Shown here piece after piece: positions 15,929 to 63,414 of a DNA stretch of 64,000 nucleotides. A model generated the notes under the pieces. That model worked only from the letters and a program-made list of their open reading frames with translations. It had not been told where the DNA came from and made no database searches. Both the position numbers and the translations under genes were made by a program. Numbering within the stretch: the stretch's first letter is position 1; each line of letters opens with the position of its first letter. Source of the DNA: Eledone cirrhosa (Eukaryota); NCBI GenBank assembly GCA_964016885.1, contig OZ024759.1, positions 36,394,001 to 36,458,000 on the forward strand, written 5' to 3'.

Positions 15929-17265
15929 CATGGAACTCTTTTAACCATCTTTTGATCTTATATATTATTTATACTCCAGTGCTACAAACTGTAGAGTGCT
16001 ACTTATCCGATATCTGCATTGCTTTATTGTACTACAATAAAACTCACCTCCTACATATATATATATATATATGTAGACACAGACACATGCATGTATATGT
16101 GTATATGTTTCTATATACACAAACATATATATATATATATATATATAAAAGTTTATCCTGGGTTCAATCGGGGGTAACCACAGTAAGTAAGGTACTCAAT
16201 ACAAAGCAGAGTATAAATATTTAATGTAGAAAAGGCTTCTACAGGACTAGAACTGTTTCATTCGGGAGAAATCATCAGGTTTCTGTTACTGTCCAAGTAA
16301 TATGGAGGTATTTATATCTTTTCTGGTGGTAGGAGAGGGTGGCAATTTGGATGGGTGGAGGTCATTGGTTGATGGGTTTAATATATATATATATATATGT
16401 ATATATATGTACATACATATACATGCATGTTATGTGCGTGTGGTTATAAAAGGGTTAAGCTATTGTATATAACTGACAGCACTGTAGTAATGGTGTAGTA
16501 GTAGTAGGTGAAGATAGTAGTGAGAGAGAGAGAGAGTGGGAGAGAGAGTAATAGATGGATGTTATAGAGTACAGCATCTGGAGAATAACTGAGTTTTTTT
16601 TTTGTTTTTTTTTTCAGCTAAAAATAAAAAGAGGTAGGATTAGATAATTGCGGCAGAGTATTTGACTGTTTATAACTGTGAGACTATTCTATAGAGGATA
16701 TATCTAATTCGACTTTAGGAGAGAGAGATATTAACACTACTTTAACCCCCAGCTAATCAGGCCTTTCTACATCATAGAAAAATGTGGTTTCTACAGCTGG
16801 ATTCCCTTCCTAACACTATCACCTTACAGAGTGTACTAGGTTTATTATATCATGACACCAACACTATCACTTTACAGAGTGTACTAGGTGTATTTTATTG
16901 TGGTACCAGCACTATCTTTTTACAGAGTGTACTGGGTGTCTTTTATTGTGGCACTTGTATTACCACTTTACAGAGAGAGAGAGAGAGAATCGACCCCAGT
17001 ACTAGAGCAGAATTTCATTGGTCTCAAAAGGATGAAGGGTAAAGTTAACCTTGCTGGATTTGAACCCAAGAACGTAAAGATCCTTAACAGTTGCCACAAA
17101 GCATTATATACAACACTTTAACAACTCTGCCAATTCACAAACCTATTCAGTAGATATTACATAAAAGACAAAACAATCATAACTGGGATGCCTTTGACCA
17201 TCAACCTGATCAGGGTTCAATCAAGAAGAGCTTAAAGGAACAATAACAACAAGAGTATAACTTAC

Positions 17266-17399
17266 TGTAGGCCGACTCTGTTCTTTCTTATTTCTTTGAA
17301 TTGCATTAATTTCTGTAGATAATTCTTCAGTTATCTTTATGAGGTTTTCATAGTCCTCCGACAGCTTCTCATACCTCTGACGTTGATGGTTTAATAAAG
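17266..17399 (-). CDS. TAB2: TAB2/3 coding exon 3 (coiled coil, TAK1-binding region)
   Basis: tttgtcag|CT joins phase 1 to give YINALLNHQRQRYEKL (cf. vertebrate TAB2 YTQALLVHQKARMERL). Ends QSRPT|gtaag. Confidence 0.9.
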
Positions 17400-17809
17400 C
17401 TGACAAATAGATAGACATAACAGTTGATGGTTTAATAAAGTTGACAAATAGATGACAATCAGTAAATGGCTGGTGGTTTAATTCAAAGTCCTGTACCCCA
17501 TGAAACCACATTAGCAAGACATTCTTGAAAAATAACCTGACTGCATCACATTAAAAATTAAAGACTTTTTTAGTTTACTGTAAATTTTCATGATTTGTCC
17601 ACTAGTAAAGATACTATAAACATTTGAATTGAATTGCATGAAATTGCTAGACATTCTTGAAAAGTATAAGACAACATTACAACTGTTTCACATTAGAATT
17701 AATCTTTACTTTAGCTTAATGCAAAATTTTGCAATAATTTGTCCACTAGTAAAGATACTATAAACGTTTCAATTAACTCCATTTTTAGTAAAATTGAAAA
17801 ATAAATTGT

Positions 17810-18216
17810 CCAGATGTGGTTGGTAGTTTAATATAGTTGACAGATGTATGGACAGATGTGGTTGATGATTTGTCAAAGTTGACAGATGTATGGACAGATG
17901 TGGTTGGTGGTTTGTCAAAGTTGACATGTATGGACAGATGTGGTTGGTGGTTTAATATAGTTGACAGATGTATGGACAGATGTGGTTGGTGGTTTGTCAA
18001 AGTTGACAGATGTATGGACAGATGTGGTTGGTGGTTTGTCAAAGTTGACAGATGTATGGACAGATGTGGTTGGTGGTTTGTCAAAGTTGACAGATGTATG
18101 GACAGATGTGGTTGGTAGTTTGTCCAAGTTGACAGATGTATGGACAGATGTGGTTGGTGGTTTGTCCAAGTTGACAGATGTATAGACAGATGTGGTTGGT
18201 GGTTTAATATAGTTGA
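17810..18216. repeat. 42-bp minisatellite, ~9.5 copies
   Basis: Unit GTTGACAGATGTATGGACAGATGTGGTTGGTGGTTTGTCAAA. Confidence 0.92.
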
Positions 18217-19853
18217 CTAACATGTCAACAGAAAGGGTTAGGGTTTTTTTCATTTGGTAATATTTTAACAACTTGAATGTTAAAGAGGCTGTTTTGGTGC
18301 TACTATAAAAAGCACCTGGTCCATGTTGTAAATGTGGTTGGCATTAGGAAGGGTACCAGCCATAGAAATGAAGCCAGAAACAGTTCTGTATGAGCAAGAC
18401 GTGGTCATCTGGCCTGACTTGACTCACAAGGGGACAACTTGTCTAACCCATCCTAGCATGGAAAAATGGAAGTTAAACAGCGATGATGATGATGATGATG
18501 ATAAGTATTAATATCATCATCATCATCAACATTAACATCATCATGACTATCGACATAACCATGATCATCATCACTATATTAACAATGCTACCATCATATA
18601 GCCATCAACATTACCAACATCTCTATCATTATCATGATACATCATCATCACCACCATGTGAAGGCATGCAGCCTAGTAGTAAGGGTGTTGGACGTACAAT
18701 CATAATGTTGTGGGTTTGATTCCTGGACAAAGTTGTGTCGTGTTCTTAAAGAAAACACTTCATTTCACGTTTTTCCAGGATATTCAGCTGAAAATAAGTC
18801 CCAGCAATAGCTGGGAATTTAAACCTGTGATGGACTGGCGTCCTGTCTAGGGAGAAGTCTTGTACTCTTATTCGCTTAATGCCAAGTTAACTAGAATAAG
18901 CAACAGCCTTGCGAAAGATTGTAGACTTTTTAGATATCACCATCAACAATATCATCATCATCATCATCACCCTAATGATCAATAGTACTACCACCCTTTT
19001 CATGATTAACAATTGAGTGCAAGTCAGAGATCACCTTCTGTTCAGTTAAGTAACACCATAGGATCGATTGACTTTCGTCAAATCGGACCGAGGAAACAAT
19101 GTTTCCATTGGTCTTTCCAGTTGCTAATACTATCTATCGGTCGCAACTCCAGGTAGAAGGAGCAACGTGAAATAAAGTGTCTTACCCAAGGACATAACAC
19201 ATCACCCGGTCCAGGAATCAAACTCACAACCACTCAGCCACACGCCTTCACAAGTAACACCATGTAGACTGCAAATTCCAGTCAACTTATTTTACAAGTA
19301 TATATGCTATATTACAATAGGCACATTAAATAACTCTTAACATCCTGTGCCACATGAAACTGCATTAGCAAGAAATTCTTCACAAGTAAAGCATAGCACT
19401 ATGACCACATCACATCAAAAACTGAAGTCTTTACTTTAATGCTACAAATTTTCACAATGATCTATCTACTAGTAAAGATACTATAAACATTTGAAACAAC
19501 AAGCCTGTTTTTAGAGATGACTGAGGAAGGAAGGGGTGATGATGTCACACTAGAGATGACTGAGGAAGGAAGGGGTGATAACGTCACATTGAGGAAGGAA
19601 GGGGTGATGACGTCACACTAGAGATGACTGAGGTAGGAAGGGGTGTTGACATCACACACTAGAGATGACTAAGGAAGGAAGGGGTGATGACAAACTACAG
19701 AAAACAGCATCTAACATTCACTACACTTGAGTGTACAATCTATACACACACACATATATACATATGCGTCAGTGTGTTGAAAAAACATTCTAGTATTAAA
19801 AACAACAGTAGATAAAATATTTTCTTTTTTTAGAATAATTAAATGGTACACAC

Positions 19854-62031: not shown

Positions 62032-62369
62032 GTAAGTGGATAGCATTGCTACATTTCCTTATATGTACACACACACACATATATATATATATATATATAT
62101 ATTATATTAAGGATACTATTTATGGTTATGTATATACTAAAACTTTTTATAGTTATATATATTTTAAACCCTAAACAGTGAAGGTCAGTAATTTATTACT
62201 ACCTTATTACCAGTAAGATAAATAGCTCAATGTAATAAAATCAGTTGTTCTACAGAGCAGTTATATAGAATATTCTATATAAATATGTAGAGGTTACATT
62301 TAATTTGTTGGGATACAAGCAAAATAATTTTATAACTGATATAAAGCACTCAACAAATTATTGGAGTAA

Positions 62370-62491
62370 ATATACAATATATTAACAAATGGAAACTATT
62401 TTTATAAAACCATATTTATTTCATTATACATGTATAATGAAATAAATATGGTTTTATAAAAATAGTTTCCATTTGTTAATATATTGTATAT
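62370..62491. repeat. Perfect palindrome with 61-bp arms
   Basis: Centre TACA|TGTA at 62430/62431; arms checked base by base. Confidence 0.95.
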
Positions 62492-62994
62492 ATATATATA
62501 TATATACAAATACATATATACAAATATATATATATATATATACAAATATACATATATATATATACAAATATACATATATATATGTGTGTATATATACAAA
62601 TATATATATATATATGTGTGTATATATACATACAAATATACATATATATATATATATATACATATATATATATATATATATATATGTGTGTGTGTGTGTA
62701 TATACATGTATAACTTTGATAGGTTTTGACTATGTTGAAAAATGAACCTCATTTAGTCATTCCATGAGAGTATCTTGGTCAGTCTACGAAGGAGTGATGC
62801 TAGAGCTGTGAGATCTTGCATACATTAATTTCAACTCTTCTTATTAATAACTGCATTGTTTCTTTCTTGGGACTATGCTGAAAAATAAACCTCATTTAGT
62901 CATTCCATGAGAGTATCTTAGTCAGCCTATCAACTTTTCAGCCGAGCAACCCCTCATATTTATCCTCATAAATTTGTTTCCTCTTATATTTCAG

Positions 62995-63282
62995 AGTCTG
63001 TTAGTCGAGGTTGTAAAGTGTCCCAGCACCCTACTCAGACACAAACTGCTCAACAGCCCCCACAATGGGCCAATTCAGATGGCAGCCGAACATCTTCAAA
63101 TTCTTTGCCTACACTGGGGACACGGCTACACTGTGTTTTGTGTAGGAGGGGTTTCAATTCACGCAGCAACCTGCGTTCACATATGCGTATCCACACTTTG
63201 GAGAAGCCCTTTGTTTGCAAGTTCTGTAGTCGTAGTTTCAGTCAGTCATCTACATTACGTAACCACATACGTCTTCATACAG
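62995..63282 (+). CDS. PRDM12: PRDM12 coding exon 5 (zinc fingers 1-2)
   Basis: tttcag|AG... [51 protein letters not shown]|gtgag; near-identical to PRDM12 fingers. Confidence 0.95.
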
Positions 63283-63414
63283 GTGAGTTAATGGCATTCA
63301 TTACACATAGCTTAAGTTTAATATAGAAATGGCTTCTACAGGACTAGAACTGTTTCACTACACAATGGTAAATCCGACACTTGTGTCATGCTTGGCTGAG
63401 TAATTTGTAAATCT

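Follow-up and report, generated by a model that had tools for sequence, protein, structure and literature searches.

Is a short repeat that carries a hammerhead motif and no gene a mobile RNA in its own right, or is it the end of something larger? This question is raised by a 64,000-nucleotide stretch of the genome of Eledone cirrhosa (assembly GCA_964016885.1, contig OZ024759.1, positions 36,394,001 to 36,458,000; hereafter the window, to which plain coordinates refer), which holds dispersed copies of such a repeat, here called family A. The original prediction took these copies for a separate, non-autonomous, retrozyme-like and undescribed system. We find instead, with a probability of about 0.92, that family A is the pseudo-long terminal repeat (pLTR) of an autonomous Penelope-like element (PLE) with the motifs of the Hydra clade, a described clade with hammerheads and (TA)n insertion, and that the short copies are likely truncated products of its insertion. 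As the prediction itself had allowed, identity with a PLE pLTR takes away the novelty and leaves the ribozyme assignment in place. Family A is then one more family in a described PLE clade, and a false lead to a new retrozyme is removed.

A blastn search with the copy at 38781 as the query returned 13 segments at nine places in the window (80 to 100% identity, E ≤ 3e-7), and together with direct reading this confirmed all nine places predicted to hold the repeat. The copies had been described as consisting each of a type I hammerhead and an ~85-nt tail, and this does not hold. Both core boxes are present in four of the nine copies (at 16278, 38908, 44968, and 45280), both stem I arms and a complete hammerhead in only three (38781, 44917, and 45221), and hammerhead and full tail in a single orientation in only one (38781-38913). 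Four of the nine are inverted composites (31472, 32120, 38686, and 45221), and the strong hairpin predicted for 31472..31634 (-60.8 kcal/mol) is the product of its inversion. Nor is there a stand-alone unit of ~135 bp, as the copy at 16153 runs ~100 nt further, to ~16381, with 89 to 92% identity to upstream sequence of the element, and elsewhere the tail continues into a leader and an open reading frame (ORF). The statement that the repeat has no ORF is correct for the window copies but not for the family.

The genome searched comprises 3.0 Gb in 1796 contigs, and loci fetched from it bear L-numbers. In a search with the 38781 copy, 40 of 384 candidates were scored and 30 loci were fetched, 10 of which have the sequence upstream of the hammerhead in common with one another. 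Two internal repeats (~185 and ~260 nt) make up this upstream part of the pLTR, and a degenerate TA/TG microsatellite lies in front of them. Beyond the microsatellite, no common 5' sequence was seen in 24 loci with the microsatellite motif, and the upstream walk failed, as the 3' untranslated region (UTR) is broken up by other repeats that target (TA)n. The walk gave the impression of a non-autonomous element of ~600 nt, which was dropped once the tail had been traced downstream. Since a PLE tail opens the following unit in the partial tandem arrangement, we looked for tails that continue into other sequence instead of ending at (TA)n. The pattern for a continued tail had 172 matches in the genome, and of 30 loci, 11 (at 10 places) have a tail that leads into one common leader, nine of these loci reaching an ATG. 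In L185 the element is complete, with a single frameshift in it; tail, ORF, 3' UTR with microsatellite, the two repeats, hammerhead, short end, and (TA)n follow one another in this order.

The C-terminal 193 amino acids encoded by L185 had at least 150 scored matches in the genome, with 95 to 100% identity. Fourteen loci with long open frames (753 to 759 amino acids) were chosen on this C terminus, and in all 14 the family-A tail lies 48 nt before the ATG of an ORF of 713 to 714 amino acids; the linked PLE ORF that had been proposed as a check is present. These ORFs are pairwise 96.5 to 99.7% identical (median, 98.4%). A second pLTR follows the 3' UTR in at least L185, L206, L208, and L212, and other long-frame loci are interrupted or the element runs beyond the fetched stretch. 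A full copy is laid out as pLTR (two repeats, TATA-like box, hammerhead, tail), 48-nt leader, ORF, microsatellite-rich 3' UTR, and pLTR. The window copies can be placed on this element. The copy at 49035..49166 is 99.2% identical over 132 nt to the pLTR directly preceding the intact ORF of L206, the plus arm at 45286-45332 is 100% identical to L206 over 47 nt, and the copy at 16153-16381 is 81% identical over 225 nt. The window also holds a fragment of the family ORF at 51188..52369, with nucleotide identities of 87.9% over 858 nt in the plus arm and 86.3% in the inverted arm; it covers the reverse transcriptase (RT) region including YRDD and is broken, with a stop near 52277.

The encoded protein was compared by hhalign, as a profile of 118 rows, with a profile of six RT+GIY-YIG ORFs from the same genome, one of which (L073) matches both RVT_1 and GIY-YIG. 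The two profiles align over 539 columns with a probability of 97.8 and an E value of 1e-12, which bears out the predicted mobilization by a PLE RT/GIY-YIG protein. There are 1172 relatives of the ORF at E ≤ 1e-30 among 8000 candidates, mostly of ~710 amino acids and ~40% identical, and one cluster of them includes jellyfish members. In 117 relatives the motifs RW, DK, YRDD, CxCx5C, YxG, R, H, CxxC, E, N, and CxH are 97 to 100% conserved, as are the endonuclease (EN) residues Y602, G604, R613, H617, E672, and N685. By the profile alignment and the catalytic residues, with Pfam alone being weak, a single ORF thus combines RT and GIY-YIG as in EN+ PLEs, and a pLTR in partial tandem, 5' truncation, an inverted 5' copy, and a tail at one end are all found as well.

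The Hydra clade has been described with the same kind of protein motifs, with hammerheads and with (TA)n insertion (PMC8557442, section 11). Judged by its sequence motifs, the ORF carries Hydra-clade features: D116 K117 T118 form DKT in place of DKG (T118 is 87% conserved), R38 W39 R40 is a variant of RWK in its third place (K in 66% of relatives), the CxCx5C linker consists of C566, C568, and C574, CxxC of C666 and C669, and CxH of C694 and H696, and CCHH is absent from the EN on reading of the ORF translation. By eye, the ORF follows the Hydra alignment in the supplement of PMC8557442 motif by motif. The likeness to the published Hydra clade, with elements such as Hydra-1_Obim and Hydra-2_Amil (Craig et al. 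2021, PMC8557442), extends to a single ORF of ~710 amino acids with a C-terminal GIY-YIG, to DKT, YRDD, the CxCx5C linker, CxxC, and CxH without CCHH, to a hammerhead close to the 3' end and insertion into (TA)n, and to the partial tandem arrangement, inverted 5' copy, and one-end tail. Family A differs from Hydra-1_Obim in its N terminus and its hammerhead and is a different family. Compared with the Hydra elements as described there, it has RWR for RWK, a clear pLTR, more than 30,000 end fragments, and a tail of ~65 nt instead of 30 to 40, and it is longer than the <3 kb quoted for Hydra because of its microsatellite-rich 3' UTR of 1 to 2.4 kb. Two family-A strings had no matches in the supplement of PMC8557442, and the family is not described in the parts of the literature searched, although it may exist in repeat libraries. 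Another publication (PMC13282606) reports 31 Penelope-like families, and the passages of it that we consulted do not mention a ribozyme.

Several results weigh against this assignment. Pfam found only GIY-YIG in the ORF, below threshold (E 0.016), and no RT, and a PDB sequence search with the 118-row alignment gave 0 matches. The clade was assigned by protein motifs. Among 169 hammerhead contexts, the stem I type found before the leader is A-U in 19 and C-G in one (L182), so that the C-G subfamily, to which the window copies at 38781 and 44917 belong, is linked to the ORF by one locus only (L182/L188). The search for the ORF link left out the older GAAGCC subfamily, and a pattern for the continuation of the CCCGGG-tail variant had four matches, 0 of which lead into an ORF. 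Other candidate parents had been traced. A Pfam GIY-YIG search, with 150 of 10,596 candidates scored, gave Neptune- and Penelope-type ORFs, none of which led into family A in 30 loci, and the L073 family was rejected after 30 of its loci had been traced. This family (L073, L085, L101-L130) is a Neptune-type PLE with a long microsatellite-rich 3' UTR, in whose pLTR a simple pattern found no hammerhead.

Genome-wide, exact matches to a 24-mer taken from the 3' half of the hammerhead number 30,797 (16,557 + 14,240), compared to 0 for the reversed control. About 600 nt upstream of the hammerhead, exact matches drop to 10 and 24 for microsatellite motifs. The architecture of the insertions was read from the first 100 exact 24-mer matches on contig 1, of which seven identical passenger copies were dropped, leaving 93 arms. 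These passengers (L220, L222, L223, L224, L229, L236, and L247) are identical family-A fragments with identical flanks inside another repeat. Fifty-six of the 93 arms lie in inversions, and 20 of the 22 inverted pairs with both arms scored combine a long and a short end. Three arms run into the leader, 20 reach at least 40 nt upstream, and in 53 the 5' boundary lies 16 to 26 nt before the 24-mer, with a mode at 23, which is the first G of stem I. The location in (TA)n that had been predicted is clear: (TA)n adjoins the 3' end in 36 of the first 54 arms (the seven passengers included) against a background at random positions of 9.6% in the loci and 7.4% in the window. Inverted 5' copies, 5' truncation, a tail on one arm, and (TA)n flanks are published hallmarks of PLEs and of Hydra (PMC8557442). 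With intact ORFs that are 98% alike, the family is young. Its end fragments number more than 30,000, their 3' ends fall at two fixed positions and their 5' ends pile up sharply, which makes it test material for the PLE transcription start, for two-strand priming, and for the function of the hammerhead, which has been called unclear for PLEs (PMC8557442).

How such insertions could arise can be sketched from these ends. The TATA-to-start spacing of promoters can be applied to the distance between TATAAA and stem I. At least 92 of 107 long copies have TATAAA 30 to 33 nt ahead of the first A of stem I although their spacers differ, and this distance, with an initiator-like site, suggests that the mRNA likely starts at stem I; the 53 of 93 5' ends at the edge of the ribozyme, behind the TATA-like box, would likely mark the transcription start. 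The predicted cleavage site coincides with neither the short nor the long copy end, and the inserted copies therefore probably come from uncleaved RNA. For a green anole PLE, the protein cuts and extends both strands, two internal RT start sites bound the tail, and hammerhead cleavage is not required for insertion (PMC11167929). The family-A GIY-YIG domain, going by its protein family and the anole work (PMC11167929), would nick its (TA)n target, with reverse transcription beginning within the RNA at either of two positions ~65 nt apart; one of these would produce the short end and the other the long (tail) end. On an mRNA that begins at stem I, 30 to 33 nt downstream of the TATA-like box, cDNAs primed in the 5' pLTR would be run-off products that stop at the mRNA start and yield units of ~70 and ~135 nt. 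Inverted pairs of a long and a short arm would be two such cDNAs primed on opposite strands, with the two RNAs perhaps held together by a dimer-forming helix III. In that case the role of the hammerhead would lie at the cap or in pairing, instead of in the release of monomers by a ribozyme. Poseidon PAc of the green anole (Frangieh et al. 2024, PMC11167929) is alike in its two genomic 3' ends bounding the tail, AT-rich targets, hammerhead at the junction of pLTR and ORF, and copies from uncleaved RNA, and unlike in that it belongs to another clade and that the family-A ends both lie before the ATG and not within the ORF.

We regard this record of PLE insertion in the genome, with its TATA/initiator start at stem I, run-off units, and opposite-strand pairs, taken as a whole, as a tentative interpretation that is possible but somewhat less likely than not. 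It is weakened by the common descent of the copies, which could account for the shared TATA spacing, by the possibility that the RT stalls or switches at the hammerhead and so piles up 5' ends where no transcript starts, and by the 5' boundaries of the older GAAGCC subfamily, which were underestimated for want of a reference. A TATA element is not mentioned in the literature found on the PLE start site.

Could some of the short copies nevertheless belong to a non-autonomous derivative of the pLTR, similar to a short interspersed nuclear element or a retrozyme, that has its own transcription and relies on the Hydra PLE protein in trans for its mobility? A discrete unit of ~135 nt does exist, with its 5' ends piled up at the hammerhead edge, the C-G subfamily is tied to the ORF at a single locus, and a pLTR origin has been proposed for retrozymes (bioRxiv 10.64898/2026.07.22.740005). 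Non-LTR retrozymes are likewise short, non-coding, PLE-related, and equipped with a type I hammerhead, but they form head-to-tail arrays of 150- to 450-bp monomers and are expressed as circles (PMC7229834; bioRxiv 10.64898/2026.07.22.740005), whereas family A occurs as dispersed singles and inverted pairs, contiguous with a PLE ORF and hence not non-autonomous as a family. Consecutive matches no more than 500 bp apart were 22 times head-to-head and once tail-to-tail, and 0 were on the same strand among the first 100 matches, so that the tandem arrays which define non-LTR retrozymes (PMC7229834) are not the rule. One array, a point in favor of such a derivative, was found in L158 at 839-1527 (G000:C1, near 67.88 Mb), where a 221-nt unit of hammerhead, tail, leader, and ORF start is repeated 3.1 times head to tail; this is a retrozyme-like arrangement arising from the pLTR, and its junction has three matches in the genome, all at that single place. 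The TATA-like box is moreover missing from the short copies, the near identity of the 49035 copy to the pLTR of an intact element and the presence of both stem I types before the ORF speak for the PLE itself as the source, and the copy ends do not match the cleavage site. We therefore consider such a derivative very improbable.

The state of the hammerhead itself is less clear. An alignment of 52 rows, hand-picked from 139 distinct ones for their element-derived upstream sequence, plus four window copies, pairs in 94.8% of cells, in agreement with the predicted hammerhead-like motif, and the loop of stem II varies as stated. The reported covariation of stem I is real but amounts to one of 13 pairs (A-U in 27 and C-G in 17 of the 52 rows), which is one inherited, subfamily-level event. 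The CUGANGA and GAAA boxes, UH site, and three stems of a type I hammerhead occur together in three of the nine window copies, and neither the G10.1-C11.1 closing pair nor covariation of several pairs was found. It is possible, though rather unlikely, that in the same element the hammerhead is a dead relic and that the 5' pile-up reflects RT stalling or template switching at the stems. Stem II has only 3 bp and U.U at 10.1-11.1, where G-C is highly conserved (PMC4209133), single copies are no more stably folded than shuffled sequences (z, -0.37 to 0.77), their predicted stem II is shifted in register and pairs into the core, and the hammerhead fold lies 0.9 to 4.6 kcal/mol above the minimum in five copies. 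Rfam, proposed as a check, gave no hammerhead among the 150 of 244 matches listed for the window or the 42 for 44900-45350, and those listed are microsatellite-driven miRNA models. The single compensatory pair and the insertion of the anole PLE without cleavage (PMC11167929) fit a relic as well. Core boxes and cleavage triplet are, however, intact in 121 of 169 contexts (selected by pattern) while loop II and core position 7 vary, the same U.U is present in other hammerhead families of this genome, and stem III is self-complementary, helix III with its loop being predicted at -12.8 kcal/mol as a dimer and -1.4 as a hairpin in four of five copies. The minimal and variant PLE hammerheads of Cervera and de la Pena (2014, PMC4209133) also have a type I motif in the pLTR, many dispersed copies, a short palindromic helix III, and predicted action as dimers, and family A differs from them in its U.U, 3-bp stem II, and 8-nt loop III. 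On these predicted folds, we think that family A likely carries a PLE-type variant hammerhead that is poor alone and better as a dimer. The family-A features of the window are collected in Table 1.

Table 1. Family-A copies and parent-element fragment in the window
Feature	Position	Strand	Details
5'-truncated pLTR copy	16150..16381	-	~100 nt of upstream element sequence including TATA-like box; hammerhead core, with the 5' arm of stem I disrupted; long end (tail) adjoins (TA)n
Inverted pair without complete hammerhead	31472..31634	.	minus arm 31472-31528, short end, core box 1 lost; plus arm 31528-31634, stem III to long end
Inverted pair, older subfamily	32120..32298	.	minus arm 32121-32242, long end with insertion; plus arm 32254-32297, core mutated
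Inverted composite	38683..38766	.	minus arm 38683-38736, short end, core box 1 cut; tail fragment 38736-38766
Complete hammerhead and tail	38777..38915	-	C-G stem I type; stems II and III with one mismatch each; 90% identical to 5' pLTR of intact L206
Complete hammerhead (C-G type)	44917..44975	-	short end, without tail; adjoins (CA)n tract
Inverted pair	45220..45332	.	minus arm 45220-45285, complete hammerhead (A-U type), short end; plus arm 45286-45332, tail only
Copy beginning within core box 1	49035..49166	+	long end; (TA)n tracts on both sides
Parent-element ORF fragment, inverted pair	51188..52369	.	plus arm 51521-52369; inverted arm 51520-51188
Hammerhead 3' half with short end	63313..63357	-	blastn and direct reading

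The window contains further repeats of this kind. A second, older Hydra-type PLE occupies 12910-15960, with an inverted 3' arm (12910-13350), a 3' UTR, a hammerhead-like motif at 15866, and the remains of a broken ORF (13355-14891) ~40% identical to the family-A protein. Two other hammerhead families have the same inverted junction at the hammerhead edge. One short family, with a palindromic hammerhead 3' half, is present at 9728-9930, 44975-45065, and 51100-51175, the first of these being an inverted pair of a long and a short arm flanked by (TA)n. An 11-nt motif of the 9728-9930 family also occurs in the family-A tail at a similar distance, and a near-identical motif follows the hammerhead of the coral element Hydra-2_Amil (PMC8557442 supplement); from this resemblance, it is possibly a conserved cis element of Hydra pLTRs. 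A third hammerhead family forms an inverted pair of a long and a short arm at 56446-56662, with the junction ~10 nt before core box 1 and U.U closing stem II. Elsewhere in the genome, two more Neptune-type families (L080, 3700-5000, and L089, 3700-4950) end in hammerhead-like motifs whose first core box, read by eye, is altered. Finally, positions 3946-5382 of the window consist of a 56-nt tandem repeat of 25.7 copies with 97% matches.

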